Origin: Eledone cirrhosa | Taxonomy: Eukaryota | Direction: 5' to 3' | DNA length: 64,000 nucleotides | Assembly: GCA_964016885.1 (NCBI GenBank) | Contig: OZ024743.1 | Coordinates: 241,552,001 to 241,616,000, forward strand | Shown here: one piece after another, positions 12,927-56,009 of the stretch | How positions within the stretch are numbered: position 1 is the stretch's first letter | Layout of the letters: each line of letters begins with the position of its first letter | Translations under genes and position numbers: made by a program | Notes under the pieces: model-generated | Databases searched by the model: none | What the model was told of the DNA's origin: nothing | Seen by the model: only the letters and a program-made list of their open reading frames with translations

Positions 12927-12970
<44 letters not shown>

Positions 12971-13076
12971 CGAAGGAAATGTGGTAAGGAACCAGGTGGA
13001 CCATAACGCCCCAAAGTACTCAATACTTAAGGAAGAAGAGTGGGTAATAGGAACGAGTAGGACCCCATATATATAT

Positions 13077-13255: not shown

Positions 13256-13303
<48 letters not shown>

Positions 13304-13355
13304 CAGGAAAGAAGGTTTACATGGTTTGCTATACAAAAAAGTTTTTAATCACATA

Positions 13356-13461
13356 GCTTACATTTGTTTCACTGAACTGGTATGTCTAGAGATCGCTATC
13401 CGCCTAATTTTGCGTCACTCGATCGCCAATACAGAATTATAACCAGTCAGATCTTCGGAGC
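13356..13461 (-). ncRNA. Hammerhead ribozyme motif in the PLE 3' repeat (mirror of 18963-19068)
   Basis: Reverse complement of the plus-strand motif. Confidence 0.7.
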
Positions 13462-13821
13462 ATGCGAGAATGAAGAAAATACACAGGCAAGAAAATAAAA
13501 GAAAATATGGAGTAGTTATGGCATTCAATTAGAACAATAAACAACAACAATTATTACAACAATGCTATCAATAAACTATTTAAGGAGACCCTGACATTAC
13601 TTAGGTGGGGGGCATATAATGTATCTAATGTTACGGCGTGAAAACCAGCTGTCATAAGGCAAAAAGTATCGTAGTGTGTATCAATTTTAAATTATAAAGA
13701 TAAGCTAGTTTTTACAGTCTTTCTCTTCATCTTCAACCGTATACATGAGTGGGACCACTGTCAAAGCTCAATAGTTGTAGAGTTAATACAGAGGTTAACG
13801 AATTAATATACGCATATATCT

Positions 13822-13894
<73 letters not shown>

Positions 13895-14230
13895 AATATA
13901 AATACATATACACATATATGTGTACATAGACACATACATACACACTAATATACACTCGTACAAAAATATACATACATGCAAAGAGAAAAGCGTGCTAATT
14001 GTAATATGGCAAAAAGAAGGTAAAGTAACATTGTAGTAGTGAAATGAGAAAAACTAGGATCTAGGATCAAATGATTGCAGCAGCTGAGAAGGAGTAAGAT
14101 TGTTGGTAGATGAGGTATTTACAGACTATTGTGTGGTATAGACTTGTGAAGGAAATAGTATACTTAATGAATATATATTTTTTGTGGGTAGTAGGTATCC
14201 TAATTTAAAGCTATGTTATGTTGGTTCGAT

Positions 14231-16144
14231 TCACGGAGGTTTGAATCTTATGAATTTAGTGGCTATTCTATGCCTGCAGAAGATAGATCTTTCTAACTTA
14301 TTATTAAGTAGTCTTTTAACATTTCTAAGGATATACAATAGCTCAAGATCACACAGCCCGCAATAGGACATAACTGTACTATAGGTTTTAGCAGCCGACA
14401 ACTTCGACCAGTTGATAGTGTAGCTAGCGTTGCTGTCCTTCAATTCCCATATTTTTCTGGCGAGGGTGGTGGAACCCATAAGAGCTCGGTTATTCATCGA
14501 GTGCCTGTGCACATACCATCTTTTCTTAAAAGAACCCGCGGTGGATCCTATGTAATTCCAAGTGGAGTTACCCGAGATGACAGTGCACATGTACACCAGG
14601 CTCGAATCGAGACATCTATTCGCCAATGGGCACCTATCTGGGAGGTGACAGTTGCAGTTTGAGGCGCTATTATGTGCAGCTTTTACATTCCTATTTAGTA
14701 CCCTGTTATAAGTGGGTTGTGATATATGCCCAATGGGGTTTTGCTGCTGCGCGTTTGTATGCGCTTGTGGTTGTGATGTTGTGATGAGTTTGTGCTTATG
14801 TATAGGTGCAATTGATTTACTTGAGATATTTCTGCGGTTGATCTTGCGTATGTGTGATTCTATGTTAGCTGCTGTTGAAAAAGAGAGTTTTATAGTAGAT
14901 CTATTGAGTAGTTTGTGATATCTATGCGAGATAGGGAAGTGTTTATCTATTAGTTTAAAGAATATAGAGGGCAGTCTAGTTTTTATAGAGGAGTTGAATA
15001 TTGGGTTGAACCATAGGTATTTCCTTTGTCTGTTTCTTCTATTGTTTCTAGGGTTTACGTTATTAGTGTTTTGGCCGTTTACTCTAGGTGTTACATGTCT
15101 AACCCTATGTCTAGTCAAGCTATTCCTATTATTATGTGAGCGGTTGGAGTAGAAATTACTAGGATTGTTTATGTTGTCCTTATTCACTATATACTGTAGT
15201 TTATCTTTATGACCGGCCCTACTTAATGCTGCATTATAATAGTCAGCATGCTCGTTAAAGATTTCTAGGTTTGAGGATAGGCGGGATATTCGGAGGGATA
15301 TACTACGTGCTATGGATTTAATTATGGATTTGGGGTGATTTGAGTTGTAACTAATGTAGGCAAGATTTTCATTATTTTTGTGGAAAGGTTCTATTAATCC
15401 AGTATTTAGATTTAGAGTTACATCTAGAAAATTTACCTTCTTATGGTTTAGTTCGTAGGTAATACTTAGGCCTAGTTTTTTGAAGAATATTCTAATATTT
15501 TTCCTTAGTCTTTCCATGCTCTGGTTGTTTAGGTTCCTAGCTATAAGTAACGTGTCGTCCCTATAAATTCCTCCTTGGAGGTTACTGAATTCCTTATGTA
15601 GGTTGTGTGCTATGAATAGCCCCACGATATCTGTAATTTGCGCAGAATCATTTGAACCCATTGTAATATCGAAGCTATTTATTCTATCCTTTCTTACCCA
15701 GTAGTTATTTTCAAATTTTACGATAGTCCTTCTAGCCGCTATTATTATTTCAATTTCATCATGGGTAAGATCAGAGTTATTTTGGGCAAATATAAGCGCC
15801 TTATCTAGGGTAGCTGGGGATATGGATGCATAATAGTCGTCTATATCAAATTGTATGAAGTTACACGTATCCCTATTTTGTATTTTATTGAACCATTTAA
15901 TTGCCTCGTTAGTGTTGCCCCATAGATTGATTTCTAGTTTACCCTTTATTTGTGCGATTACCCTATCTAGAATGTTTTTGCTAATTTTACCTATGTCTGA
16001 CTTGGATGGGCATATTAATCTAATGGTAGGATTAGTTTCAAAGTTATTTTTGTGATCTTTCAGGTTAAATGTAGGGTTGCACGGGGTAAGCGGTTCGGTC
16101 CTATCTGAAATTCCGAGTTTATTAACTATCTTGAGGCCCTCCAT
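14231..16144 (-). CDS. PLE reverse transcriptase + GIY-YIG endonuclease, N-terminally truncated (637 aa)
   Basis: Identical to the 16202-18205 product apart from two substitutions (MNNRAL vs MKNRAL; STVMSY vs STGMSY). Confidence 0.9.
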   Translation of the reverse strand: MEGLKIVNKLGISDRTEPLTPCNPTFNLKDHKNNFETNPTIRLICPSKSDIGKISKNILDRVIAQIKGKLEINLWGNTNEAIKWFNKIQNRDTCNFIQFDIDDYYASISPATLDKALIFAQNNSDLTHDEIEIIIAARRTIVKFENNYWVRKDRINSFDITMGSNDSAQITDIVGLFIAHNLHKEFSNLQGGIYRDDTLLIARNLNNQSMERLRKNIRIFFKKLGLSITYELNHKKVNFLDVTLNLNTGLIEPFHKNNENLAYISYNSNHPKSIIKSIARSISLRISRLSSNLEIFNEHADYYNAALSRAGHKDKLQYIVNKDNINNPSNFYSNRSHNNRNSLTRHRVRHVTPRVNGQNTNNVNPRNNRRNRQRKYLWFNPIFNSSIKTRLPSIFFKLIDKHFPISHRYHKLLNRSTIKLSFSTAANIESHIRKINRRNISSKSIAPIHKHKLITTSQPQAHTNAQQQNPIGHISQPTYNRVLNRNVKAAHNSASNCNCHLPDRCPLANRCLDSSLVYMCTVISGNSTWNYIGSTAGSFKKRWYVHRHSMNNRALMGSTTLARKIWELKDSNASYTINWSKLSAAKTYSTVMSYCGLCDLELLYILRNVKRLLNNKLERSIFCRHRIATKFIRFKPP

Positions 16145-16201
16145 GTTTATGCCACTAACGGTATCATAGTAAAAGCAGACAAAACATCAAACGTATACTC
16201 T

Positions 16202-18205
16202 ATGGACATTAACACATACAATAACTTTATTCAGCGTGAACTACATAAAAAATATAAAAAAAAAAATGAATCTACACTCACCAGCATAAACATGGAGGGC
16301 CTCAAGATAGTTAATAAACTCGGAATTTCAGATAGGACCGAACCGCTTACCCCGTGCAACCCTACATTTAACCTGAAAGATCACAAAAATAACTTTGAAA
16401 CTAATCCTACCATTAGATTAATATGCCCATCCAAGTCAGACATAGGTAAAATTAGCAAAAACATTCTAGATAGGGTAATCGCACAAATAAAGGGTAAACT
16501 AGAAATCAATCTATGGGGCAACACTAACGAGGCAATTAAATGGTTCAATAAAATACAAAATAGGGATACGTGTAACTTCATACAATTTGATATAGACGAC
16601 TATTATGCATCCATATCCCCAGCTACCCTAGATAAGGCGCTTATATTTGCCCAAAATAACTCTGATCTTACCCATGATGAAATTGAAATAATAATAGCGG
16701 CTAGAAGGACTATCGTAAAATTTGAAAATAACTACTGGGTAAGAAAGGATAGAATAAATAGCTTCGATATTACAATGGGTTCAAATGATTCTGCGCAAAT
16801 TACAGATATCGTGGGGCTATTCATAGCACACAACCTACATAAGGAATTCAGTAACCTCCAAGGAGGAATTTATAGGGACGACACGTTACTTATAGCTAGG
16901 AACCTAAACAACCAGAGCATGGAAAGACTAAGGAAAAATATTAGAATATTCTTCAAAAAACTAGGCCTAAGTATTACCTACGAACTAAACCATAAGAAGG
17001 TAAATTTTCTAGATGTAACTCTAAATCTAAATACTGGATTAATAGAACCTTTCCACAAAAATAATGAAAATCTTGCCTACATTAGTTACAACTCAAATCA
17101 CCCCAAATCCATAATTAAATCCATAGCACGTAGTATATCCCTCCGAATATCCCGCCTATCCTCAAACCTAGAAATCTTTAACGAGCATGCTGACTATTAT
17201 AATGCAGCATTAAGTAGGGCCGGTCATAAAGATAAACTACAGTATATAGTGAATAAGGACAACATAAACAATCCTAGTAATTTCTACTCCAACCGCTCAC
17301 ATAATAATAGGAATAGCTTGACTAGACATAGGGTTAGACATGTAACACCTAGAGTAAACGGCCAAAACACTAATAACGTAAACCCTAGAAACAATAGAAG
17401 AAACAGACAAAGGAAATACCTATGGTTCAACCCAATATTCAACTCCTCTATAAAAACTAGACTGCCCTCTATATTCTTTAAACTAATAGATAAACACTTC
17501 CCTATCTCGCATAGATATCACAAACTACTCAATAGATCTACTATAAAACTCTCTTTTTCAACAGCAGCTAACATAGAATCACACATACGCAAGATCAACC
17601 GCAGAAATATCTCAAGTAAATCAATTGCACCTATACATAAGCACAAACTCATCACAACATCACAACCACAAGCGCATACAAACGCGCAGCAGCAAAACCC
17701 CATTGGGCATATATCACAACCCACTTATAACAGGGTACTAAATAGGAATGTAAAAGCTGCACATAATAGCGCCTCAAACTGCAACTGTCACCTCCCAGAT
17801 AGGTGCCCATTGGCGAATAGATGTCTCGATTCGAGCCTGGTGTACATGTGCACTGTCATCTCGGGTAACTCCACTTGGAATTACATAGGATCCACCGCGG
17901 GTTCTTTTAAGAAAAGATGGTATGTGCACAGGCACTCGATGAAAAACCGAGCTCTTATGGGTTCCACCACCCTCGCCAGAAAAATATGGGAATTGAAGGA
18001 CAGCAACGCTAGCTACACTATCAACTGGTCGAAGTTGTCGGCTGCTAAAACCTATAGTACAGGTATGTCCTATTGCGGGCTGTGTGATCTTGAGCTATTG
18101 TATATCCTTAGAAATGTTAAAAGACTACTTAATAATAAGTTAGAAAGATCTATCTTCTGCAGGCATAGAATAGCCACTAAATTCATAAGATTCAAACCTC
18201 CGTGA
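16202..18205 (+). CDS. PLE reverse transcriptase + C-terminal GIY-YIG endonuclease (Naiad-type; frame open upstream to ~16154)
   Basis: RT motifs FIQFDIDDYY, MGSNDSAQITDIVG, IYRDD, VNFLDVTLNL; linker CNCHLPDRCPLANRC (CxCx5Cx5C, described for Naiad PLEs); LVY..NYIGST..FKKRWYVH; C-terminal CGLC..E..LLN. Upstream in-frame IVKADKTSNVY shows 5' truncation. Confidence 0.93.
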   Translation: MDINTYNNFIQRELHKKYKKKNESTLTSINMEGLKIVNKLGISDRTEPLTPCNPTFNLKDHKNNFETNPTIRLICPSKSDIGKISKNILDRVIAQIKGKLEINLWGNTNEAIKWFNKIQNRDTCNFIQFDIDDYYASISPATLDKALIFAQNNSDLTHDEIEIIIAARRTIVKFENNYWVRKDRINSFDITMGSNDSAQITDIVGLFIAHNLHKEFSNLQGGIYRDDTLLIARNLNNQSMERLRKNIRIFFKKLGLSITYELNHKKVNFLDVTLNLNTGLIEPFHKNNENLAYISYNSNHPKSIIKSIARSISLRISRLSSNLEIFNEHADYYNAALSRAGHKDKLQYIVNKDNINNPSNFYSNRSHNNRNSLTRHRVRHVTPRVNGQNTNNVNPRNNRRNRQRKYLWFNPIFNSSIKTRLPSIFFKLIDKHFPISHRYHKLLNRSTIKLSFSTAANIESHIRKINRRNISSKSIAPIHKHKLITTSQPQAHTNAQQQNPIGHISQPTYNRVLNRNVKAAHNSASNCNCHLPDRCPLANRCLDSSLVYMCTVISGNSTWNYIGSTAGSFKKRWYVHRHSMKNRALMGSTTLARKIWELKDSNASYTINWSKLSAAKTYSTGMSYCGLCDLELLYILRNVKRLLNNKLERSIFCRHRIATKFIRFKPP

Positions 18206-18541
18206 ATCGAACCAACATAACATAGCTTTAAATTAGGATACCTACTACCCACAAAAAATATATATTCATTAAGTATACTATTTCCTTCACAAGTCTATAC
18301 CACACAATAGTCTGTAAATACCTCATCTACCAACAATCTTACTCCTTCTCAGCTGCTGCAATCATTTGATCCTAGATCCTAGTTTTTCTCATTTCACTAC
18401 TACAATGTTACTTTACCTTCTTTTTGCCATATTACAATTAGCACGCTTTTCTCTTTGCATGTATGTATATTTTTGTACGAGTGTATATTAGTGTGTATGT
18501 ATGTGTCTATGTACACATATATGTGTATATGTATTTATATT

Positions 18542-18599
<58 letters not shown>

Positions 18600-18962
18600 C
18601 GTAGATATATGCGTATATTAATTCGTTAACCTCTGTATTAACTCTACAACTATTGAGCTTTGACAGTGGTCCCACTCATGTATACGGTTGAAGATGAAGA
18701 GAAAGACTGTAAAAACTAGCTTATCTTTATAATTTAAAATTGATACACACTACGATACTTTTTGCCTTATGACAGCTGGTTTTCACGCCGTAACATTAGA
18801 TACATTATATACCCCCCACCTAAGTAATGTCAGGGTCTCCTTAAATAGTTTATTGATAGCATTGTTGTAATAATTGTTGTTGTTTATTGTTCTAATTGAA
18901 TGCCATAACTACTCCATATTTTCTTTTATTTTCTTGCCTGTGTATTTTCTTCATTCTCGCAT

Positions 18963-19068
18963 GCTCCGAAGATCTGACTGGTTATAATTCTGTATTGGCG
19001 ATCGAGTGACGCAAAATTAGGCGGATAGCGATCTCTAGACATACCAGTTCAGTGAAACAAATGTAAGC
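18963..19068 (+). ncRNA. Type-I hammerhead ribozyme variant (CCGAAGA core, long stem II)
   Basis: GCT-CCGAAGA-T-CTGACTGG...CCAGTTCAG-T-GAAACA AA TGTA-AGC; predicted cleavage after 19065. Confidence 0.7.
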
Positions 19069-19293
19069 TATGTGATTAAAAACTTTTTTGTATAGCAAAC
19101 CATGTAAACCTTCTTTCCTGATTTATTATTACTCCAAGTGTTTACAACATAGGAATTACAGCATACCCGCAGCATCACTATGAAAACGCCTTGTTGAGTC
19201 AAACCAAGCCAAGCGTTAATATCATCCACTACCTGGAATACCATAACTGGACTTCACCTAAGTGGACTGCATTTAACTATTATTTGTTAATCC

Positions 19294-23318: not shown

Positions 23319-23358
<40 letters not shown>

Positions 23359-23369
23359 TGATAACCTGA

Positions 23370-23409
<40 letters not shown>

Positions 23410-23415
<6 letters not shown>

Positions 23416-24579
23416 TCAGGTTATCAATAATGTAGTGATAATATATCGTTACGTTAGAGATGAACAGCGTACGTGCAGGTTTGCTCAACGAGTATAAATT
23501 ATATTCCGGAGAAATGTAGAAAGGATGAATATAAAATGAAAGTGCTTTTGTTAAAAAAGGAATTTATTAGGTGTTGACATATGTTTCTGTAACAGACCGA
23601 ATACCTATGTATCGCTGCTTGCGTAATCATATATAGACATCGCCTTTATAGACATCGTTATTCGATAAAACATGAAAACCAGCGTTATGTAACAACACTC
23701 GCAGACAAGGCTTGGCAGCTGCGTGAAAATAACCAACAATTTCACCTAAAATGGGATATAATAGCGGCTGTCCCCCCATAATCCAATGGACAGGAATTTT
23801 GTAAATTATGTAATGTAGAATTATTTTGTATTATGAAATCCAAAAACATTTTATTAAATAACAGAATAGAGCGATCGTTATACTGTAACCATCGCTTAAG
23901 ATCTACATTTTCATATTATAAATACTACCAGGATTGAACGCCTGTCTCTATCCCCGTTTGATTGTCAAAATAGATATGAACATTCTTTATTAGTCTTAAT
24001 TCTATCAACTCTTCTATTATTTACCTTTTAATACAAACTACTATAGATAAAATGAGATTTCTGATTTCTTGATTCAATTCCCTAATGCATATACCAGCTG
24101 GCTACTAGCATTGATGTTATTTAGTAGCAATCGAAATCTCCCCCTTCCCCAATTGACACTTTATAATTAATACTACTGCACCAAATGACCAGCCCTGTCC
24201 ACTGTCCAGTTGGTCAAGTAGAGATTAAAATTGGCACTCCCAAAATTCTTATTTAGATTTACTCATGGTATTCTCATTAAAAACCCATTATATACTTGTC
24301 TAGCAGTAAATTATTTTACCATCTGTCATATACTATCCCCTCTGTTCCTTCCTCTTTTACTAATATAAATACTTCAATTTTTCTGATTTTATCCAGTTTA
24401 TCCAAAATCTCTGAAGAAGTGACAACTGATTATACATTTGCTATCGAATACTTGCTAACATTATATGATTACGCAAGCAGCGATACATAGGTATTCGGTC
24501 TGTTACAGAAACATATGTCAACACATAATAAATTCCTTTTTTAACAAAAGCACTTTCATTTTATATTCATCCTTTCTAT
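23410..24579 (+). mobile_element. Short Naiad-type PLE remnant with inverted 3' end on the 5' side
   Basis: ~23652-23936 translates HRYSIKHENQRYVTTLADKAWQLRE...KWDII...FCKLCNVELFCIM...LLNNRIERSLYCNHR (one stop); ~23517-23633 is the reverse complement of ~24462-24579; HHR CTGAAGA-A-GTGACA...TGTTAC-A-GAAACATATGTC at 24411-24519. Confidence 0.88.
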
Positions 24580-24618
24580 ATATATATATATATATATATA
24601 TTTATTGTATAGAAGGAG

Positions 24619-25797: not shown

Positions 25798-25853
<56 letters not shown>

Positions 25854-25859
<6 letters not shown>

Positions 25860-26891
25860 TTTACATATATATATACATACATATACATATACGTGTTTTG
25901 CAACTGGTCACTTTGTGGCTCAATGAAAAATTAATAAATTAAACAATCAGAGCTATATATCATAAAACATGTCTATAGAATCACAAGATAAAATTTATAC
26001 TATTTCATCTCCCATATAGCATAATTAATTATATAAAAAATCGAATAGACCAGGCTATAAGAATGAGGCTTATATGAAGAAATCTCCGACAAATAACCGA
26101 AACTAGTGCTTCGCGTCGGCCGGAGCGGAATATTTATCGAATATTTCGACAGCGTAATCGCCCAGATATAGTCAACTAAACAGAATTAGGTGTGAAATAA
26201 ACTAGGAGAAAATAGAATACATTTAAATACCTCTACCATGGTTTCGTCCGTATTTTGAGTTTTCCAATAATTATGTAATAATTATATAAGTTGCAAAACA
26301 CGTATATGTATATGTATGTATATATATAGGTAAACTTTTATATGTAATAATCTCCCATCAGGTTGAGATACAAATTTGGCTGTATTGTGCTGTGCTTTCT
26401 AGCAAAAATGCCACCAGTCGTAAGCAACTACCACACCCCTTCCAACCTGACGGCGACTACGGCACGATTTTTAGCCATTTTGAAATGAATTCTTGGCGCG
26501 ATCACTTTGAAAAATTTAGTGTCTAGATAAGAGCGAGCTTCCTGATGAATCCGGCGCTCGAGTTTATATAATTATTACATAATTATTGGAAAACTCAAAA
26601 TACGGACGAAACCATGGTAGAGGTATTTAAATGTATTCTATTTTCTCCTAGTTTATTTTACACCTAATTCTGTTTAGTTGACTATATCTGGTCGATTACG
26701 CTGTCGAAATATTCGATAAATATTCCGCTCCGGCCGAAGCGAAGCGCTAGTTTCGGTTATTTGTCGGAGATTTCTTCATAGAAGCCTCATTCTTATAGCC
26801 TGGTCTATTCAATTTTTTTATATAGTTAATTATGCTAATTGGGAGAGGAAATAGTATATATTTTATCTTGTGATTCTATAGACATGTTTTA

Positions 26892-26899
<8 letters not shown>
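25854..26899. mobile_element. Non-coding HHR fold-back element (retrozyme-like)
   Basis: Inverted arms 25954-26289 / 26564-26899 and 25854-25905 / 26289-26341; (TA)n flanks; no ORF. Confidence 0.8.
26538..26623 (+). ncRNA. Minimal type-I hammerhead ribozyme
   Basis: CTTC-CTGATGA-A-TCCG...CGGA-C-GAAAC CATG GTA-GAGG; palindromic ACCATGGT stem III. Confidence 0.85.
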
Positions 26900-26925
<26 letters not shown>

Positions 26926-26984
26926 CACACATATATATATATACATATAAATATACATACATATATATATATACACACACATAC

Positions 26985-27024
<40 letters not shown>

Positions 27025-27404
27025 CCAAAATTAAGATAAATCAAATGAATTTAATCCAAATCAAAATTATGGGTGTCATGCCAGAAAGACATGCGCCATA
27101 TCACCCGCAAAATAAGCTCTAAGATTCTAACGAGTAGGTCCGAGCATTTTATAATAACTAGAAATTGATTAACATATAAATAAACATGAATAATCACAGG
27201 AGATAATTTTTACAAGTGTGTAACCACACATAGCTAGGTAGGTAACTACATAAAGTTGACCAGAACTTCAAAAATAGATACCTTATAATATGATTAATCT
27301 TCCCTGTATATATTCCATTAAAGAAATAAATTTCTCCAAATGTAAAAATTATCTCCTGTGATTATTCCTGTTTATTTATATGTTAATCAATTTCTAGTTA
27401 TTAT
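27025..27404. repeat. TA-flanked fold-back element with ~65-bp arms
   Basis: ~27151-27214 is the reverse complement of ~27341-27404; no clear HHR. Confidence 0.75.
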
Positions 27405-27424
27405 ATATATATATACATATATAT

Positions 27425-28440
27425 AACGAAGGAAATGTGGTAAAGAACCAGATGGACTATAACGCACCAAAGTACTCAATACTTAGGGTAGTAGAGTGGG
27501 TAATAGGAACAAGTATGACCCCGACGGCAGAGCTCAAGCCGTTTCGACGGCTAATTCTGGACTAAAGAATTTTTATAATGCAGCCCATCGGTCCTCTGTA
27601 GCCTCAGTAACCCCACCCCCCTAATTTTATGATAGAATTGGCCGATTACACTTTTTATTGCAGATGTGTTAGACCCTAGTGAATTGTGTTCTTTCTGGTT
27701 GCTGCTCCATTTCTGTGGTTTCTAAATTTCTTAGTGGTATTTTTGTATTAGTATTCTTGTATTAGTATTTATGTATTAGTATTTTTGTAGTAGTATTTTA
27801 GCATTTTTGTTCTCAACTTATTAACCTCTCATTGTAAGATATCATTGGCTGATTACTACTAACTATAGCAGTGGTGTTAGAACCCCTGTAAAGCCGCCTT
27901 TATAACATTCTTTTACTACAATCTCGTATTTAGTATTTTTCTCCACCTATTAAACTTTCCTATAGCTTAGAAATACCAATGAGAGATTTGGTGATTGTCG
28001 GAATGGAGTAGTAACCAGAAATTGTTTTTTTTTAAATATATTTATTTCCTTATTTTTATAATAGTTTTTTGTTTACTCCCTTTGGATTTACCTATTCTTT
28101 CAGCCTCCCCCTTCTCCAGTACACTTTTCTCGACCATCTATACACTATCCTTAGAATCTGCTGTATAGATTTCACTTTCAACGCTTGACTGGATTTTCCC
28201 CCACCCCCTCTTTGTTCTACCGGCAAGTTCAGCTACCCCTACCTCCCACCAAATGCCATGATAGAATCATCTGTCTTTACAACAAATTTTTGACCAATCC
28301 TTTTGACAATTACCATCTTCCCATATAAGGAATTACCCCCTGAGAAGTTCGGCTATTTATTTACCAGGCTAAAAATTCTTATTTAGTCCAGAATTAGCCG
28401 TCGAAACGGCTTGAGCTCTGCTGTCGGGGTCATACTTGTT

Positions 28441-28443
<3 letters not shown>
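27425..28443 (+). mobile_element. Non-coding PLE-type remnant with HHR and inverted 3' end; related fragments at 12969-13066 and 40573-40622
   Basis: HHR ACCCC-CTGAGAA-..CGGCTA...TAGCCG-TC-GAAACGGC TTGAGCTCT GCTGTC-GGGGT at 28335-28430; ~27503-27574 is its inverted 3' portion. Confidence 0.75.
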
Positions 28444-28489
<46 letters not shown>

Positions 28490-29315: not shown

Positions 29316-29354
<39 letters not shown>

Positions 29355-29355
29355 G

Positions 29356-30366
29356 TATAAAAGAGAAAACACAGGTAAGCATTAAGAGAAGTATTTTATC
29401 CAGATATTTACGACCGTTTCATTGGTAAGTGCAACCTTATATTGCTATACTGCAAATAGCAGCCACTCAATTATAATTGTTGACTATCTTACTCCACGGC
29501 ACCAAATATAGAGGCACACATTGAGATGCTTAATGCTAAAAAGATACATAACAACACCAAAACACAAATTTACAACAATAACAATACAATCACCACCGAA
29601 CACAACAGAATATCTAATACACAACCACCCGCTAATAGGCAAACAAAACGTAACACACTTGTACAGGCATCGCAGCCCACCAATAATGTCAAAGTTGCCC
29701 ATGACAAGAATTGTAACTGCCACCTACCTAAAACCTGTCCATTACATAATGAATGTATGCAGTCTAACCTGGTTTACCAATGCACAGTGGAATCAGACAA
29801 CCAGAAATGGTATTACATCGGAGCAACTGGGAATACATTTAAAGCCCGTTGGCATACACACCGTTACGCAATGAAACATTCCCAGCATCGTAACTACCCT
29901 TGCAAACAAGACCTGGCAACTGATGGAAAGTAACCATCAATACACCCTGAAGTGGAAAACATTATCGAACGCGCCCCCATATCGAAGTGGTATGAGAAGC
30001 TGTCGATTATGCGACCATGAGCTGTTCCACATCTTGAGTTCGAAGAATTAGTTACTCAACAATAAAATCGAAAGATCAATTTATTGTAATCATAGACTCA
30101 AAGAGAAGATTTTGCACTACAAATCGAACCCTTAACCTCTTACTACCAACTGACAAACTGCATATACTTAGACTTTATACCCTCTTGTTGTATATAAACC
30201 CTTTTTATTACCCACAAAACCAATACATATTTCCCCCTCTTCTCCCTCATTCCTCTTCTATTTCTTCGTTTTCTTGCTTCCTTCCCTCCCCTTCTTGGCT
30301 ATCTTTTCTTTTCTTCTTTCTCACCCACTTCTTTGCTTTTATCTTTGTCATTATTATCTTAATCTT

Positions 30367-30432
<66 letters not shown>

Positions 30433-31002
30433 CTCTTTATATCTCCCCGCTCTCTCTCTCACTCTCTTAATTCTCTTTAACTCACTACATTCCACGACAT
30501 GAAGTCTGCTATTAAAAATGACCAAGGAATCCTTCCACCGCTACCCCTCCCTCCATCTCAGTTTGTCACTCTACTTCCTACCTCTTCCCTCTTCCACTCT
30601 CTCTATACTATTCCGTTTATCCCCTCACCTTCTGATTCCTCTCTCTCTATACTAGTAAATACAATTCCAAATAAATGTTTTTCTCTATATATTAAGAATT
30701 ATTTCAAGATTAACTTACTCACTATTTTGAAAATTTGGACACTGAACAACAATTATAATTGAGTGGCTGCTATTTGCAGTATAACAATATAAGGTTGCAC
30801 TTACCAACGAAACGGTCGTAAATACCTGGTTAAAATCCTTCTCTTAATGCTTACCTGTATTTTCTCTTTTATACTTTATACTCCAAGATTGAACGGAATT
30901 CTTACAAACTTGTGGAGTTACCCGTAACCGTACGTAGAAACTAACCATGGAACTGGCTTTCTTAACCAAGAACTGGATCACAATAAGCAATCTTTTGCTT
31001 CT

Positions 31003-31274: not shown

Positions 31275-32400
31275 CCTTTTGACGTCTCTAAGGGTTCGTT
31301 CGACAGTGCCGACGTGTGCGATTTAGTTGGATTATTCCTCCTCCACACTCTTAAAGAGAAATTTCCCAACCATACTATCGGCTTATACCGAGACGATGGA
31401 TTGTGTGTCTCTCATACCACCAACGGCCATAAGCTTGACAAATTCCGTAAAGATTTAATTAAAACCTTCTCTACCCCAAACCTCAAAATTACTATAGATA
31501 CTAATCTAGCTAATACTAACTTCCTCGACATCAATTTTGACCTACTTACTGCTTCTTTCACACCCTACCATAAACTTAACGAACATTTAAAATATATACA
31601 CAAAGCGTCTTGCCATCCTCCTATAGTATTTAAAATCCTTATTCCTAATATTAGCCGTAGGATCTCTACCTTATTTTCTTCCGTAGAGATTTTTAATGAA
31701 GCAGCCCCTTATTGTAATAAGGCCCTTAAAATAGCGGTTTCAACAAACAATAATAGGAAAAGAAAATAATATGGTTTACTCCACCTTTCTCTTTAACAAT
31801 TAAAACAAATATAGGAAGAACATTCCTTGAACTTCTAGACAAACATTTCCCACAACAACGTAGATATAATAAGATATTCATTAGAAATTTAGTTAAAATT
31901 AGCTACTCTTGCTGTCCATCCATGCAATCAAAAATTATCAGCATGAGTATCAATAAAGGAAATCCAGGATATAGTTGCAGAAAAGCTGAAAAATGCCTTT
32001 TACAGGGCAAATGCAATACGAAATCAATCGTATACGAGGCTAAAATAACACCTATTGTGATTAACCCGCCTGCCATGAGTGAGCGATATGTGGGTAAGAC
32101 GCAAGATACTACGCACATGTCGTTTCCTTCAAGCACCCAGAAAAAAGAACAACTACGGCGCTGGCAAATAAAGTGTGGGAGTTAAAAGAAAGCAAGATTC
32201 CATATTTGATTTATTGGTCCATCTTAGACTACTGAAAAGAATAGCGGAAAGGCTAAAAGAAATGTTCCTTGTGTATAACCGAAAAATACAAAATCCTGCA
32301 AAATCTGAAAGTTCCTAAAACTTCCCTCAATTCTAAAACTGAGGTTTTCAGAATTTGTCCACACATGAAATCACATCTTCTTTCCAGCTGGTATAATATA
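31275..32400 (+). pseudogene. Decayed RT/GIY-YIG ORF of a second Naiad-type PLE family
   Basis: FDVSKGSFDSADVCDLVG, GLYRDDGL, NFLDINFDL, then (frameshifted) IIWFTPPFS, SCRKAEKCLLQGKC..IVYEA..YVGKT, CSLCITEKYKIL. Confidence 0.88.
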
Positions 32401-32420
32401 ACTTTGGACACTGAATCACC

Positions 32421-32858
32421 CTGCTTCCGCCGAAAATTATAGAAGCTGGTTTCTTATAGAATTCCAGTAATAATCAGGAGATGATTATACAAAGCGATTG
32501 CCGGTCCAGCAAAAATTAGGTATTAGGATTGATGCTGTAAAATAGCGATGTAAACATGAATGTATGTATAGTATATTTGGCAATATACCGTATGTTTGAT
32601 TAAAACCATTGAGAAGACCATACGCTATCCGGCAATCGCTCTGTATAATCACCATCTGATTATTACTGGAATTCTATAAGAATCTAGCTTCTATAATTTT
32701 CGGCGGAAGCAGGTTGTTCGTGGCTCTGATGATCGCCAACCAGCGTGAAGCAGGCTGTTAGCTTCTCTCACTTCTTTCGCCGAAAATAAGTAAGTGACAT
32801 AGTCACTACTTTAAAACCGATAGCGTATGGTCTTCTAAATGTTTTTAATTCAAGCATA
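32421..32858. mobile_element. Non-coding HHR fold-back element (retrozyme-like, ~320-nt monomer)
   Basis: Inverted pairs 32421-32503 / 32629-32713 and 32592-32630 / 32817-32858; HHR GCT-CTGATGA-T-CGC CAACCA GCG-T-GAAGCAGGCTGTT-AGC at 32723-32762. Confidence 0.75.
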
Positions 32859-33141
32859 GCTTTATACAAATATGTATAGAAATTTCGTATTCTAAAGAAA
32901 CACGGTATGTTTACAAGAAACATTTAGGAAGCTGTAGCTATGCAAAAGCCGGGGCTAACGCCCTCTGGTGTTGTCCAGTAGAAGCAAAGGGGACATCATC
33001 ATGTAACCATTCAGGGCATTTTTTCTCTTACACACAGAAGCATCTAGTTTTTAAACATTAAAGCGTAGTCTCTACATTTTAAAACAATCAACCTCATCAG
33101 CACCCAATCATCATCATCATCAACAACATCCACATCATCAT

Positions 33142-38015: not shown

Positions 38016-38867
38016 GAATAAATAAATAGATAAATAAATAAATGTGAGCTCACACATATATACACACATGTTTACATACATATGTACATACACACATGCA
38101 CATACATATGCTAAAAATGAAAATGGAAAAAACCCAGCACAACGGCCACCTAGAAGGTTGTGGGGGTAGGAAGCGAAAGTGAAAGTAGCATGATTTGCTC
38201 CAACCATATTTAAAAGTTGAAATTAAAATACAATTAAACAAGAGACGGTTGAAGTATAGCAACAACTAAAGGGAACATTAAAAAAGAAATGTGTTGACGT
38301 CCTTTGATGTCTCAAAAACAGCCTCAAATATTGATGAAAGAAATAATATTTTCTTTTATATATTTTGTTTTCCAATGTTTACCTTTACAATTTTTACATT
38401 TTATTCTAGTTTTATTCACTACTCTCTCGACTTTCGACTTCTGGTTCTTTGTTGTTGTGGTGCTTTTGTTGTTTTCTACACGAGCACTTTTCGTTTATAT
38501 GATGGCTAACGGAAAATGACAACGTTTGCAGCCTTGACCAAATTTCTATGGTGTTAGTGACAAGAAATGATCGATCGCTCATTTAAGAATGTTGCTATAT
38601 AACAAAATAATTTAGCCTTGCGGAATTAAACCGGATGCTATGACCTGTATCATCACCAGATGGGCAAAGCTAAAAATGTCATCAAAATATTGGCTGATTT
38701 CCATGCAAATCACCATGATCTCATAGCATTAAACACAGAGATGCACACACACACGTATAGGTATATATATATACTTAAGTGTATATATTGATATTAGCAA
38801 ATGTTTACATACAAACACACACACACACACACACACACACGCATATATATATATATATATATATATA

Positions 38868-39610
38868 CATCTCGGAAGTTGTTTTTCGCTCATTTCCAAT
38901 AGACGAAATGCAATTCTCGTTAATTTATATATATATATATATAAATTACCGAGAATCGCATTTCGGCTATTCGAAATGAGCGAAAAACAACTTCCGAGAT
39001 GTGTGGCAAGCGCTCCATAGAAACTAGAGAACTAGTGCAACAACATAAGTTAAAAGGCCAAACACACTGAGACAATGGTTGAACCATTATCCGCAAAGCC
39101 ATAGAAACGACCACAGCTATTCGGCTCAAATAAATAATACAATATGATTGAAAATTATACCCGGACCCCTGGAAAACGTGGTAAGATCCGATATGGGGTT
39201 TCTGCAACTCCTAAATCAGGTACTGTCTGCTTAAACAAATAATGTTAAGCTTTTGGTATGATGATCGATCAAGGAAGTCACTTCTTCAACAGGCATTTAG
39301 TTCTATGCAAAGCTAAGGACTGACCGTTATCAAAACCCACGTGGGAGACAGCCCCTAGTCTTAGCGGATGAATTCAGTATCTGTGTTATTGCGGATGAAT
39401 TCAGTATGTGTGTTATTGCAAAATTACAAAATTTCACAAAACGAATTAAGCTCTCAACGGAATAGTTTTAAAAATTAACAAGAGCTATTAATCAGTCAAT
39501 AGAATTAATTAAAAACAAAAAAAAATTTAACTAGTTAATAGTCAGACTCTGGAGATTAATACAAATATAAATTAGCGAGAATCGCATTTCGGCTATTGGA
39601 AATGAGCGAA
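38868..39610 (-). mobile_element. Non-coding HHR-bearing unit (~626-nt period) with mirrored 3' end
   Basis: 38868-38927 is the reverse complement of 38942-39001 across (TA)n; 38941-38984 is directly repeated at 39567-39610; decayed HHR TGT-TGAAGA...CAAAAGCTTA-ACA at 39291-39243. Confidence 0.65.
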
Positions 39611-39615
39611 GATAC

Positions 39616-39894
39616 ATGTATAAAGTAGAATGTGACAAGTGCAACCACTACTATATCGGTAGCACAATCCGGCCGCTACACATCCGGATCAAGGAGCACA
39701 TCGACACCAGAGCCTCGTCTTTCCGGAAACACATAACCAAATGCGGAAACAAAGACGGAAGGCCCATTGTCACAGTGCTAGCGACAGAACGCAACACCGG
39801 CACGTTACGAATCAAGGAAGCACTTTGGATCAAACGCCTAGGGCCACAAATAAATAACCGATCCGAGAGAAGCGAAATGAGGTGGTTGGTGTAA
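39616..39894 (+). pseudogene. PLE GIY-YIG endonuclease fragment (Penelope/Poseidon-like), followed by a CA-rich 3' UTR
   Basis: YKVECDKCNHYYIGSTIRPLHIRIKEH...RIKEALWIKRLGPQINN. Confidence 0.85.
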
Positions 39895-40551: not shown

Positions 40552-40713
40552 CTGTGTGTGTGTGTGTGTGTGTAGCCGTCGAAGCGGCTTGAGCTCTGCC
40601 GTCGGGGTCATACATTTTCCTATATATATATATACATATATATATATTAATTAATTAAAGGTTAATTAGTCTCTAATACGTAAAAATCTCAATGAATGGA
40701 TAAAATATATAAG

Positions 40714-40768
<55 letters not shown>

Positions 40769-41135
40769 AATATACATACATACACACACACATATATATA
40801 TATATGTGTGTGTGTATGTATGTATATATGCGCTCGCTAGTATGTATGTGGGTTTGTCTTTATCTGTGTGTGTCTGAGTACCTTTATGATCCCGTAACTC
40901 TAGATGGAGTCGTGGTGGGGGCCATCACGTCCTTGACGTGACATGGACATATTAAAGTTAGCGGAACCCATCCCCTCTCCATGAAAAAGAGATAAATGAA
41001 AGAATCGATTACAGTATTGGACAGGTACATTTTTATCAATGCCGAAATGAATAAATGGGACGCATTCTATTCGACGTTATAACGATCATGCCAATTATAT
41101 GCGCATGTATATATATATATTTTTATTTTTTATTT

Positions 41136-41358
41136 TTTTTTATCGACTTTCGTCAAATCGGACCGAGGAAACAATCAATGTTTCCATTGGTCTTTCCAAT
41201 TGCTAATACAATCTATCGGTCGCAACTCCAGGTAGAAGGAGCAACGTGAAATGAAGTGTCTTGCCCAAGGGCATAACGCATCGCCCGGTCCGGAAATCGA
41301 ATTCACAACCTCACGATTTCGAATCCAATTCTCTAACTACTCAACAACACGCTTTCAA
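41136..41358 (-). mobile_element. tRNA-derived SINE, family B; its 3' tail is duplicated in inverted orientation at 41358-41447
   Basis: Minus strand GCGTGTTGTTGAGTAGTTAGAGAATTGG...GAATTCGATTTCCGG...CTTGGGCAAGACACTT...ACGTTGCTCC plus tail AGTTGCGACCGATAG...CGAAAGTCGATAAAA; homologous to 42540-42749. Confidence 0.8.
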
Positions 41359-41443
41359 GTTGCGACCGATAGATAGTATTAGCAATTGGAAATACCAATG
41401 GAAACATTGTTTCCTCGGTCCGATTTGACGAAAGTCGATAAAA

Positions 41444-41499
<56 letters not shown>

Positions 41500-41657
41500 C
41501 ATGCGCATATAATTGGCGCGATCGTTATAACGTCGAATAGAATACGTCCCATTTCGGCATTGATAAAAATCTACCTGTCCAATACTGTAATCGATTCTTT
41601 CATTTATCTCTTATTCGTGGAGAGGGGATGGTTTCCGCTAACTTTAATATGCCCATG

Positions 41658-41830
<173 letters not shown>

Positions 41831-42411
41831 AAGCCTGTGGCTGAGTAGTTAGAGAATTGGATTATATATATATATATATGTATATATATAGACACACATA
41901 CATATATATGTATATAAAAGGCAAACAGAAATAACAACACAATCGTTACAGTATATGGAAGGAATATATTAGGTTAACGCTTGATATAGCAGGAAGAGGG
42001 TCTTAACGTTTCGGACGCTAGTCCTTCACTAAAAGAAAGAATGAGAAATTAGAAATATTGAAGGGACGGGTGGGGTGGAATTGGAAAAAATCTCTTTAGA
42101 TAAAAAATAACAGGTCCATTCATGTGACCACCTCTTGGAAAACTGTTGATGCAGAAGTTTTGTGTATTATATAATTTTTTTTGAAAAGTGGATGCTGGAG
42201 CGCATTTACCTGAAATGGAAAAAAGACCGTTTTTAATTAAAGAGCTATTGTTGTGCGCGTGCGTATGCGTGTATATATAGATAAATAGAGATAGAGAGAG
42301 TGAGAAAGAGATAGATAGATATGTGTGGGGTGTGTGTATATATTATACATACATATATATATATATTACGTTGCTCCAGTTTACTCAGCTCTAGAACTCA
42401 GCTGAGTTCTT

Positions 42412-42443
42412 GCCTGATGAACCAGGCGAAACTCCGAAGTAGC
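42412..42443 (+). ncRNA. Minimal type-I hammerhead motif just downstream of a SINE central-domain fragment
   Basis: GC-CTGATGA-A-CC A GG-C-GAAACT CCGA AGTA-GC; intact core but very short stems I and II. Confidence 0.6.
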
Positions 42444-42539
42444 CTTAATGAAATGAATATTATAACCCCGCTTCAGTACTGAGGATTCTTTTCTCTCAGG
42501 CGTCAAGCATATATGGATATACATATATATCCCGTAGTT

Positions 42540-42749
42540 AAGGCGTGTGGCTGTCTGGTTAAACAATTGGAATCGCAATCGTAAGGTTGTGAGTTCGATT
42601 CCCGGAACGGGCGATGCGTTATGTCCTTGAGTAAGACACTTTATTTCACGTTGCTCCTTCTACCTGGAGTTGCGACCGATAGATAGTATTATCAATTGGA
42701 ACGACCAATGGAAACATTGTTTCCTCGGTCCGATTTGACGAATGTCTAT
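42540..42749 (+). mobile_element. tRNA-derived SINE, family B
   Basis: A-box TGGCTGTCTGG, B-box GAGTTCGATTCC, GTCCTTGAGTAAGACACTT, and the same tail as the 41136 copy. Confidence 0.85.
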
Positions 42750-43645
42750 CGTTCCTTTATATATCCCGTGTTCCTTTTGTGGGTTCATACATATATTGGT
42801 GGACCGTTTCGCTGAACACTTGAGAGGCAAATGACTCGGCATGGATACACGCGTTGCTCGTCATTTCTGTTTCCCAGGCCACTTCCTCCTATATGTCTCA
42901 GTCCTTGGTATCCTTTCACATCACGGATCACTGACCTCGCGCACCAGGACTGAGCAGAGTCTGATTTTCCGCTTTGAGTCAAGTCTCTCCATTGGACTCA
43001 ACTCCCCTCCCCAATTTCTTTAACCTTACACACATACCTCATCCGATATCACACACGCGCGTTTATGGTCACAAACACAAACATACCTACAGCTAATACA
43101 GACCAACAATAACAAAAGCACACACCACTGCATTTATCTCCACTGCTCTGTATGAACCAATAACTAACATATACACATTTATAAACACACATTTGCTCAT
43201 AGTTTCGTACTTACATATACACACACACACTCTTATACTTACATTTACACATATACTCTTAGTTTCTTACGGACGTATACAAACGCACTCACACTCACAC
43301 ATGCATACACACGCGTACATGTACAGCTCTATATAAAAACGGTTTTTTCCCCTTGCAGATAGGAGCACTCGATCACCATCATTTAAAATAAGTTTATCTT
43401 ACACAAAACACCAGCATCAACAGTTTTCTTAGAGATGGCGATATAAATGGACCTGATATTTTTATCTTTTTTATTCCTTTCTACCACTGCCCATCTCCTT
43501 ATTCTTTCTATTTCTTCTTTAATTTCTCATTCTATTTTCTGATGAAGGACTAGCGTCCGAATGGTTAAGACTCTTTGCCTACTATATCAAGCGTGAGACT
43601 AATAATATATTTCTTCATTGTACTGTATCATTTGCATTTGCATTT

Positions 43646-43688
<43 letters not shown>

Positions 43689-50732: not shown

Positions 50733-53700
50733 TTGATAGAGTAAGACACGCTTCACATCGGCTCCGCTATTCCATCGGGATCTACCCTTACTATTGTAAG
50801 TACCGGATAAATTTTTCAGTGCAACACATTTGGAACACTAACCCCTGTTATTTAGGGAAACATTTTTGCATTTACCCCCTTTTTAGGGGGTAAAATAAAT
50901 ATCTATTTTTGCCGAAAAATTTCTTTCTTGGCAGCATGGCGGAAAAGATGGCAGACATGTCTGCCATTAGCTCTGCCACGCCCCCCAAGTCTGAAGAACA
51001 AAAAATAATTACAACAAAATTAGACAATGAAACAAACAAAGAAAATGAAAAAACAAATGTTAAGGAAAATGAGCAAACGGAAAACAAACAAACAGAAAAT
51101 AATACAAATAACAACAGGGCAACTTTCGCCCAGAAAACAAAACAATCCATTACATACACACCAATTGACCTAACTGCCGCCAGAGAAAAACTGGCCGAAG
51201 CAAAGAAACACATTGTTTTGGGGGAGAACGGAATGTTTTCCATTAACTCCCCCCCCCCCCAGAATTCAAGAAAGAAAGAACAGAGAACACAGTTCTCTTC
51301 AGAACTATACTGAACCAGACAAGAAAGCCAGCACAACCCAGCCAAATGGAAATAGAGTTAGTCCTAAAAGACTATATGAAGAATATTCTCTTCATACGAA
51401 AGGACCGACTCTATGGCAGCATTTCGGTCCTAACAAGAGACAAGGAAACGGCGGAGAAGCTTTCCCTAAGCCCACTCTCATCGACAACATACAGCTTCTA
51501 TCCCTCTTACATGGGTAGAAGAACACAGAGAGTAAAAGTAAAAACAATGCTGCCCACAATGGACTTCTGGTGGGCTATTGCTGGCTTCATAGACATGGGC
51601 GAAGACACAATGCTGTCAATGGGGAAGGCAACTGGAGATGCGTTCCTGGGAATGGGCCTCGACATACTAGTCCAAATGAGGCCCGAAAGAATAGCACAAA
51701 TCCCGGATCGCATCTGGCTGGATGACCTTACCCCAATAGACATAATTGTAGAGGGGAGAAGACCAGCATGCTATTTATGCATGGAAAGGGGACACGTTAA
51801 GGCTAACTGCCCGAAACGTATCCCCCAAAAAGGACTATTGCCCACACCCACCACAAACAGTACACCAACACCACCCACCTCCAAAAATACACTAATACAC
51901 AGCAAACAAAATACAGACACCACCAACCACAAACACAACACAAACATCACCACCACCAGCACCAAACACAAGCACGACACAAAAATCACCACCACCAACC
52001 ACAACACAAACATCACCATCACCAACCACAAGCACGACACAAACATTACCACCACCACCACCACCACAAAACCCATTCCAAACAAATAATAAAAAAAACA
52101 GTAACAAATCTACCCCTCCCGCAAAAAAAAAACAACCACACAACACGTCCCTCCCACCTAGCGCTGAAGAGTTTCCCCCAACTTCTGAAGAAGAAGGAGG
52201 AGAAGCCTTCAGACAAGTTAAAAGAAAAAAAAGAAAACACACACCCAGCACACCACAAATAACCCACACACAAACACCAACTCCAATCAAAAACACCCCA
52301 CCCTCACCAAACAAAAATAAATCTGCGCCTCCCCTCTTCGAAACATTGACAGCATCACAAAAAAAGACGTTGCAATACACATATATAAATAAAGAAAACA
52401 AAAAAACTGGTTAAATTAATAAACAATAACCCTATGGTGCAGACCGAAGGGCCAAACTTTATCTCAACAGAGAACTTCACCCATTTAAAAATGATAAAGG
52501 TCCCTATGGACCTTTATCGTTCCTTAAAAGAACAATTTAGACGGGACGTGAGCCCCCCCCCCCTGTTTAAAACCGTTGAATCGCGTCCTCTTGAAAGATT
52601 TCCCCATAACCGCCCCTCTCCCTGACACAACTCCAAATACCCCAACCCCACCACACACGTGTACCCCCACACCACCACAAAACATCCCTCCACCCAACAC
52701 ACCTGATGCGATGGAAATTACGCAACCCGGAGAGGTAGGTGCTTTTCTTTCTTCACTTTCAACACCAAAATAGATCAATTGAGAGTTGGCTGTTTGAACG
52801 CGCGTGGCCTGGGCTCAGCTTGGAAGCAAGCAAAGCTTCTAAGTGACCTCAGGTCACAAAGTATAGATGTGATTGTTGTTTGCGAGAGTCGGATCAGCAG
52901 CGTGAGACAGCTGGCGCCCGCCTTCGATGACTTTGAGATGCATGCATCTCTCTGTCAACCCGGAGGCGGGGGGGGGGGAGTTGCCGTACTGCTGGATAAA
53001 CGTCAGACTCTCGACGTACAGATTGTTCACTCGGACCCGGGGGGTCGATTACTGGTGCTGGACGTCGGAGGCGGTGAAGGTGGGGCTTTCAGACTGGTCG
53101 GTCTTTATGCTCCCTTCGGGGCGGAAAGAGCCGACTTCTTCCAGCGTCTGGAGACTTTTCTAGGAACGTCGCGTTCCCTGCTTTTAGTGGGGGACTGGAA
53201 TGGAATCCTAGATGCGCGTTGGGACTATGCAGGGGCATGTCCCGATAGAGGGGGGTGTAGCAGCCTCAAGGGGTTACTCGATCGATTCGACCTGGTCGAT
53301 AGATTTCGACTAGATTGTCCAACTGCGCCAACCTGGACCTGGGCAAACCGCAGTGGACAATCTAGATCGTACCTAGATAGGTTTTTGGTTAGGAGTAAGG
53401 ATAGGGACGTATTTAGTTGTCCAGAACTGATCATGGTTGGCTATTCAGATCACAAATTAGTGACCTGCGTGGTCAACCTTGATAGAATGCATAGACAGGG
53501 TCCCGGTTACTGGAAGATGAACTTGTCCTTGCCGACAAAGAAAGATTACAGAAACCGGATTAGTAGCTTAGTTAAGATGCGGTTGACGGGAGCGATCGTC
53601 AACAGTAGGTGGTGGGTATCTCTAAAGAGAGAGATTAGAGTAAGTTCGATAGGTTACAGTAAGGAACTAGCGGCGAATAGAAATAGGAAGGAAAGGGAGT

Positions 53701-55946: not shown

Positions 55947-56008
<62 letters not shown>
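55947..56008. repeat. (TATC)n spacer between LINE copies; also at 50713-50732 and 61771-61800
   Basis: Directly visible. Confidence 0.95.

Positions 56009-56009
<1 letters not shown>

Follow-up and report, generated by a model that had tools for sequence, protein, structure and literature searches.

A hammerhead-bearing fold-back in a TA microsatellite, read as a two-ended insertion of a PLE 3' end

Within the window, the 64,000-nt stretch of DNA that was analysed, positions 25854-26899 fold back on themselves, and the two arms, read one after the other, spell what could be a single unit with a hammerhead motif inside it. An earlier note took the locus for a cDNA copy of a circular RNA or tandem template, that is, for a non-autonomous parasite of Penelope-like elements (PLEs). 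The question is whether such a unit existed, or whether its apparent period arose when two pieces of a PLE were inserted side by side. The locus itself consists of two truncated copies of one abundant family, lying head to head inside a TA microsatellite. As to its origin, we favour, at a probability of about 0.55, an ordinary two-ended insertion of a PLE 3' end in which a piece at the central junction (A) was recopied, and the earlier interpretation is partly supported; the odds attached to this and all other readings are judgements and were not computed. Published sources are cited for those parts of their text and supplements that were accessible.

Anatomy of the fold-back

Comparison of 25854-26899 with itself by self-blastn returned two inverted pairs as its sole matches (Table 1). 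B (26564-26899) is identical to B' (26289-25955) at 324 of 336 positions (E 4e-160), the differences being 11 substitutions and one indel, and A (26289-26340) is identical to A' (25905-25854) at 51 of 52. These alignments confirm the order in which the earlier note had read the strands, namely A-y-hammerhead-B on the plus strand and B-linker-A on the minus strand. The plus arm of 611 nt and the linker of 48 nt together make about 660 nt. Both outer ends meet (TA)n, with a few TA letters in common. The joins on either side of A are short overlaps, with 1 nt common to A and B' and up to 7 nt (TTTATAT) common at the join of A to y.

Table 1. Features of the fold-back and of its flanks, in window coordinates
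Feature	Positions	Strand	Basis
(TA)n target microsatellite, left flank	25802..25853	.	sequence
A', outer end of the inverted arm	25854..25905	-	51/52 to A
Linker, read as PLE tail; follows B in some family copies only	25906..25953	-	contigs and loose ends
B', inverted 5'-truncated copy of the 3' end; 5' break within the stem II hairpin	25954..26289	-	324/336 to B
A, inverted duplicate of the left outer end, where the two arms meet	26289..26340	+	self-blastn
y, family sequence upstream of the ribozyme	26341..26530	+	covered in all four runs, patchy in X5
Type I hammerhead motif	26531..26624	+	core and three stems by sequence, descriptor control
B, 3'-terminal 336 nt of the forward arm; stops where many family copies stop	26564..26899	+	self-blastn, other copies
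(TA)n and compound microsatellite target, right flank	26900..27024	.	sequence

A' is made up of about 8-14 nt that continue the tail, a compound microsatellite and a 10-nt unique piece, and could be either target DNA or distal tail. Its 28-nt core has 27 separate matches with up to 4 mismatches in the window, A and A' counted among them; the two non-microsatellite ends of A, of 14 nt and 10 nt, have A and A' as their sole sites there. Neither self-comparison nor a motif scan found a further copy of the family in the 64,000-nt window. In none of the seven other fold-backs of the window that were tested does the centre hold an inverted copy of the outer end plus flank, and the two other elements that scored in this test are a hairpin inside a PLE 3' region and a bare microsatellite.

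At eight of the sites shown, B carries the majority letter of the family and B' does not. Private changes number eight in one arm and three in the other, a difference that is not significant (p 0.23) and does not separate one template from two. Several minority alleles are common to both arms, which fits one event and one subfamily. The stretch has a low GC content of 35%, and its tail region folds no better than shuffled sequences (z +1.15).

The 1046-nt stretch contains no long ORF, as the earlier note had stated: the longest ATG frame has 26 codons and the longest stop-free frame 78. A reading of y as the end of a PLE ORF was considered, since one frame seemed codon-periodic (among 14 shown variants, four are synonymous and two lose a stop, none gaining one), and was dropped because two other frames score equally, single-base indels lie within y and the frame searches gave no match. 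A protein search with this one frame returned 11 candidates, none at E<=10, and the same frame had no match among 1.84 billion representatives. No match to a profile of 60 PLE-like proteins was obtained, and none of 124 PLE-like proteins matched at E<1e-3, the control being matched by 115. A coding partner of the family was thus not found in these protein searches, the large ones of which took the one frame of y.

The hammerhead motif and the PLE fold-backs of the window

The hammerhead motif, recognised here by sequence, has CUGAUGA at 26542-26548 and GAAA at 26608-26611, with predicted cleavage after 26619. Stem I has 5 bp (26537-41 with 26620-24). Stem II, with a total of 59 nt, consists of 4 bp and a long hairpin above them, and stem III is formed by the 4-bp palindrome ACCAUGGU, for which a dimer helix with a second copy is predicted at -11.2 kcal/mol. 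The base of stem II is A.C (26549/26607) instead of the usual G-C, and G10.1-C11.1 is described as highly conserved in hammerheads (PMC4209133). A contig from organism B that covers this position (record 23) has six differences, all at other listed places, so the A.C pair appears from this sequence to be a trait of the family. The unconstrained fold is not a hammerhead, at -18.2 kcal/mol versus about -13.5 kcal/mol when the hammerhead is forced. Since B begins inside stem II, the minus arm holds the 3' half of the ribozyme only and the locus has one complete core. The earlier note had called this core intact, which holds for its completeness and is qualified by the A.C pair, the differing free fold and the absence of Rfam hammerhead matches at the gathering threshold across the window; on the stretch itself, Rfam gave only four weak microRNA matches, all on microsatellite. 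A relaxed descriptor, composed after the motifs had been seen, picks out six hammerhead-like motifs in the window, whereas 30 shuffles give 0.33 on average. GAGCG at 26531-35 is exactly complementary to CGCUC in the stem II internal loop (26555-59), and this could be a 5-bp pseudoknot between stem I and stem II, predicted without reliable covariation; pseudoknot contacts of such a kind between these stems are common (PMC3088659).

Three other fold-backs of the window have a long arm coding for a PLE protein, one arm ending in (TA)n and other sequence extending beyond the matching end of the other arm. The largest, at 13298-19126 (the 13 kb element), has 2855-nt arms that are 99.4% alike and 681 open codons on its right arm. 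Its protein, at 16160-18205, carries DKT and CxCX5C, which are Hydra-clade motifs, and a GIY-YIG-like end; look-alikes carry RT, HTH_animal and GIY-YIG, and the best database relative is 38% identical. The fold-backs at 23428-24581 (the 23 kb element) and 29349-30880 have short inverted arms and related coding remnants in the long arm. These two and a further truncated PLE copy at 31278-32860 have 36-52% protein identity to the 13 kb element. A short hammerhead was observed at 32726 in the copy at 31278-32860.

Three of the six hammerhead-like motifs lie in the coding PLE 3' regions of the 13 kb and 23 kb elements, at 18966 (+), 13458 (-) and 24411 (+). All have a mismatch at the base of stem II, a stem II of 81 or 90 nt and a stem III of the form ACnnnnGT, and in both arms of the 13 kb element CCGAAGA replaces CUGANGA. 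In these two elements the ORF stops about 760 and about 475 nt upstream of the core, and at our locus 201 nt precede it, so that a copy of a coding element truncated at this point would lack the ORF. The 13 kb element also has microsatellites inside its RNA, in both arms; the argument that a microsatellite cannot lie inside a repeat unit is thereby ruled out, and the microsatellite in A is no objection to a tandem unit. No clear DNA similarity was found between the element and the local coding PLEs, and no neighbour is therefore established as its partner.

Several other repeats of the window were recorded. A GIY-YIG fragment (Pfam PF01541, E 1e-4), the relatives of which carry RVT_1 and HTH_animal, lies at 38867-39891, where it is preceded by a fold-back with about 58 nt per arm around a TA run (38867-39002). 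At 23358-23427 there is a perfect 70-nt palindrome, in which the last 17 nt of the outer end of a PLE arm are inverted across a (TA)n run; by analogy, it may be a small counterpart of a recopied end. Minimal hammerhead-like cores are present at 42414 (+) and 24661 (-), the former beside a SINE-like repeat (about 42540-42660) and also with A.C at the base of stem II. Inverted-arm insertions in microsatellites, belonging to other repeat families and 71-98% alike, occupy 27150-28445, 40939-41660 and 41881-43683, with related pieces at 12946-13066 and 40573-40623. The region 52206-64000 contains tandem LINE copies about 5.9 kb apart, with segments 92% and 80% alike and with endonuclease, RVT_1 and zf-RVT domains.

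Other copies of the family in public data

Some part of the stretch is carried by 12 public runs from nine organisms, eight of these runs having small shares. Four of the 15 runs listed were aligned to 25906-26563, a span that represents each part of the element once: the contig runs X1 (1358 contigs aligned), X4 (41 contigs) and X5 (21 contigs, the only small-share run aligned) and the RAD reads of X13 (1977 reads). The alignment skipped 26295-26335, within A, and three joint rows and nine loose-end rows there were left out. Copies of the family are numerous and occur in two organisms at least, A and B, and this multiplicity fits the earlier interpretation. There were no RNA runs among the 12 that carry parts of the stretch, which has no bearing on expression, and exact-pattern scans gave no copies in viral contigs, metagenome contigs or prokaryote genomes. 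The family is not described in the accessible literature on retrozymes and cephalopods and on octopus Penelope hammerheads, although the octopus repeat library of PMC13282606 and the supplements of PMC7229834 and of bioRxiv 10.64898/2026.07.22.740005 may hold it. Its motifs were found neither in the accessible papers nor in the supplement of PMC8557442, in which line breaks could hide a match.

The copies are strongly biased towards the 3' end. Summed contig depth over 25928-25993 is 11.1, 11.6 and 12.5 times higher than over 26346-26521 in the three contig runs, a rough ratio that is confounded by subfamily divergence (y being more diverged) and contig breakage and is non-monotonic within y. 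Loose ends running into (TA)n at 25954 were found in three of the four runs (12 contigs of X1, three contigs of X4 and 78 reads of X13), indicating copies that end where the plus arm ends; other copies also meet (TA)n at the loose end at 26253. In contig records 9, 17 and 18, B runs into the linker, so that the adjacency of the two noticed in the earlier note recurs elsewhere, and in record 23 the 5' half of the ribozyme is joined to B. Among the signs that the earlier note had named as speaking against its own view were fixed ends in other copies and a lack of the B-linker-A adjacency. These are partly borne out: in many copies the 3' end is fixed where B ends, and the organism B contig of record 17 departs from A after about 8 nt. 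Two variants were also recorded: at the loose end at 26102, the last approximately 150 nt of B are preceded by a different, partly similar sequence (177 reads of X13 and one X4 contig), and at 26467, 73 reads carry another upstream sequence. These variants are possibly sister subfamilies or a coding partner.

The joints in other copies point to the same mode of integration. One table of nine joints includes four head-to-head junctions (25965>26471, 25974>26514, 26090>26405 and 25966>26212), its other five rows being read as internal deletions or replacements, and a second table adds two (25958>26379 and 25991>26440), making six in total; each joint is supported by single contigs or two reads at 85% likeness. 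The forward arms at these junctions begin at scattered points. Together with the inverted, 5'-truncated B', the six junctions support the PLE-style inverted-arm integration that the earlier note had proposed. A is listed between the arms at none of the six, with 26295-26335 masked, and the order linker-A-y was seen in none of the listed joints, three joint rows at the mask having been left out. A contig of X1, entered at depth 10.3 in two rows that are taken as one record, has a 25-nt piece (25941-25965, from the B end and tail) between its arms, flanked by 4 and 3 extra letters, and judging from its sequence may be a precedent for a recopied junction piece.

Three observations bear on what adjoins A in the family. 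Record 17, an organism B contig (loose end 25908), is the only visible contig to extend beyond the linker; it continues through about 8 nt of A and then into a TA repeat, and no part of the 144 letters that follow is listed on y. On the other side, other copies can be aligned as far as 26337, which lies 4 nt inside A and 1 nt away from the masked span; this limit comes from bin arithmetic for X4, X13 and X5, with a depth-weighted value of about 26342 for X1, of which record 6 begins at 26337. The reach to 26337 reflects either the 7-nt microhomology at the join or a family sequence in which A precedes y. Finally, record 15, a multi-copy X4 contig (depth 30.9), extends upstream of 26337 by 94 unseen letters, roughly what A and the linker together would occupy. 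The reach to 26337 and this contig speak most strongly for the view of the earlier note.

Origin of the central duplicate and comparison with known systems

PLE insertions are 5'-truncated, often occur as partial tandems, often have an inverted truncated copy at the 5' end and bear a tail of 30-40 bp at one end (PMC8557442). For one PLE, it was reported that both target strands are cut and extended by the enzyme, and that reverse transcription begins at two internal sites, the tail being the sequence between them (PMC11167929). On this model our locus would be one insertion, in which a PLE reverse transcriptase primed one cDNA from each cut target end. At the right target end, priming at the first start site, the end of B, would have copied B, the ribozyme and y before stopping; at the left, priming at the second, more distal site would have produced the tail, that is the linker, and then B', this cDNA stalling inside the stem II hairpin. 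The central A would be a junction piece copied twice before the cDNAs were joined through up to 7 nt of microhomology, its source being either the left target end with the first tail bases or the distal tail, the latter by re-initiation as in PLE partial tandems. If A was recopied at this one junction, the 660-nt period is a by-product, and truncation inside a long 3' untranslated region, which y probably is, explains the lack of an ORF. From these features we infer a PLE as the source of the enzyme, its clade and the origin of A; the inserting element was probably a Hydra-type PLE.

This reading is supported by the 11-12-fold depth of the 3' end, the common 3' end, the scattered junctions, the X1 contig with its extra piece, the departure of the organism B contig from the path of the window within A and the agreement with published anatomy, and by the three coding fold-backs of the window that are built alike, two of them with the same hammerhead layout; the linker is well explained as a PLE tail. 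There are also points against it: the lack of a central duplicate in the seven other fold-backs, the alignments extending 4 nt into A, the 94 letters of record 15, the internal microsatellites of local PLEs, the missing coding partner, the lack of clear DNA similarity to the local coding PLEs, the confounded depth, the thinly supported joints and a tail longer than published.

Much of this would suit a short non-autonomous PLE derivative with a fixed period of about 660 nt (B-linker-A-y-hammerhead), copied from an uncleaved linear tandem RNA, an origin that we consider possible but with the odds well against it. Such a unit could have come about, for example, through an internal deletion that brought tail and 3' untranslated region together, and at this locus the forward arm would have run 52 nt into A and the inverted arm would have been primed at the end of A. 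A single junction then suffices, and the alignment of other copies up to the edge of the masked A (26337), the absence of a central duplicate in all seven other fold-backs and the lack of a coding partner would fall into place; each arm extends across the site of predicted cleavage, and the one PLE tested in vitro works mainly on uncleaved RNA (PMC11167929). Head-to-tail arrays of non-autonomous PLE derivatives are also known (bioRxiv 10.64898/2026.07.22.740005; PMC8557442). However, the doubled 52-nt A is the only argument for the period at the locus itself, arrays would give a flat depth profile and not a 3' end some 11-12 times deeper than y, linker-A-y occurs in no listed joint (apart from the three rows dropped at the mask), the organism B contig does not go on from A to y, and the hammerhead is laid out as in the local coding PLEs.

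A further step, which we hold to be unlikely, is that the hammerhead released the unit of about 660 nt, that the unit was closed by ligation to a circular RNA and that a PLE reverse transcriptase copied this circle; the locus would then preserve, in the genome, a cDNA made by going round it. All points for the period apply here too, and both arms read across the cleavage site, which is what cDNA copied from a ligated circle should do, but no evidence separates a circle from a linear tandem. The hypothetical circle folds at -147.8 kcal/mol (z -2.2, none of 40 shuffles as low), with 65% of its bases paired against 61% in shuffles, and the predicted 5-bp pseudoknot could make the ribozyme more stable. 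Circles are known from animal retrozymes (PMC7229834). On the other side, a palindromic stem III is expected to need a second ribozyme and PLE-type hammerheads cleave weakly in vitro (PMC4209133), stem II has A.C at its base, the sequence prefers a fold other than the hammerhead, and eight of nine predicted frog retrozyme dimers were uncleaved (bioRxiv 10.64898/2026.07.22.740005). The fullest form of this view, an abundant noncoding Hydra-type PLE parasite of about 660 nt with a circular RNA, dispersed as truncated inverted copies without arrays and bearing a 59-nt stem II clamped by the 5-bp pseudoknot, is likewise doubtful. Least probable is that A was doubled only later, when the inserted fold-back underwent a local inverted duplication, or that the assembly is in error here. 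Short perfect or near-perfect fold-backs do occur beside (TA)n in the window (23358-23427 and 38867-39002), and no listed read or contig spans the whole stretch; yet the arms differ at 12 places and B has the majority letters at the eight sites shown, so the fold-back is not one sequence assembled twice, and the difference rate of A and A' (1/52) is close to that of B and B' (12/336), which fits one event.

On the preferred reading, a PLE 3'-end insertion with a recopied junction piece, the locus is one more PLE end and would be a clear case of two-site, two-ended priming. If the 660-nt period were to hold in other copies, it would instead be a non-autonomous PLE derivative with dispersed inverted insertions, and its insertion anatomy would link animal retrozymes to PLE enzymes, for which the accessible papers argue from co-occurrence and sequence trees; a circle, if also found, would bear on the proposal that PLE tandems come from circular templates (PMC4209133, Discussion). 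Even then the kind would be a known one: animal retrozymes have repeats of 150-450 bp, with PLEs as their likely mobilisers (PMC7229834), their consensus lengths are 51-972 bp, with a mean of 650 bp in ray-finned fish, and their homology to PLE ends has been reported (bioRxiv 10.64898/2026.07.22.740005). The statement in the earlier note that the unit is larger than animal retrozyme monomers does not stand, 660 nt lying within that range. Under any reading, the long-stem-II hammerheads common to the element and the coding PLEs of the window are a candidate ribozyme variant.

The closest known systems are insertions of endonuclease-bearing (EN+) PLEs (PMC8557442; PMC11167929). As in these, the locus pairs a 5'-truncated copy with an inverted neighbour that is likewise cut short at its 5' end; one end alone is extended, a type I hammerhead lies close to the 3' end, the target is (TA)n, the copies have a 3' end in common and their 5' truncation varies. 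It differs from those in the accessible text in having no ORF and no coding partner found, a tail of at least 48 nt against the published 30-40 bp, and the 52-nt inverted duplicate of the outer end at its centre. Opposed hammerheads 100-700 bp apart are known from truncated PLEs (PMC4209133). Within the PLEs, the Hydra clade is defined by the protein motifs DKT, CxCX5C and RWK and by RT phylogeny (PMC8557442); this stretch encodes no protein. The likeness to this clade consists of the (TA)n insertion, the stem III, acca/tggt both here and in Hydra-1_Obim, and the mispaired base of stem II, which many Hydra hammerheads in File S2 have too (PMC8557442). A further link is the long-stem-II layout shared with two coding PLEs of the window, of which the 13 kb one has DKT and CxCX5C. 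In contrast, the 59-nt stem II, besides its A.C mismatch, far exceeds the accessible Hydra rows of File S2, from which the 81-90 nt stem II lengths of the window PLEs are absent as well, and cleavage is predicted 280 nt before the 3' end, a distance of only about 60 nt in the coding elements nearby.

With non-LTR retrozymes (PMC7229834; bioRxiv 10.64898/2026.07.22.740005), the element has in common a type I hammerhead, no ORF, the low GC content, a unit within their length range and the proposed PLE origin and mobilisation. Unlike the retrozymes described in the accessible text, it has one complete hammerhead, no head-to-tail array at the locus and a strong 3' bias among its copies. The canonical type I motif has a helix I of about 6 bp, a helix II of 4 bp with a small loop, G10.1-C11.1 and a contact between loops 1 and 2 (PMC4209133), and the hammerhead here is instead of the PLE type, with a 59-nt stem II, A.C and a palindromic 4-bp stem III. 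Li et al. count minimal hammerheads as well, and their wider definition of retrozymes could still take in the element. Because there is one non-canonical hammerhead, and neither arrays nor circles were seen, the element is not classed as a retrozyme; on every feature that was testable, it behaves as a PLE end.
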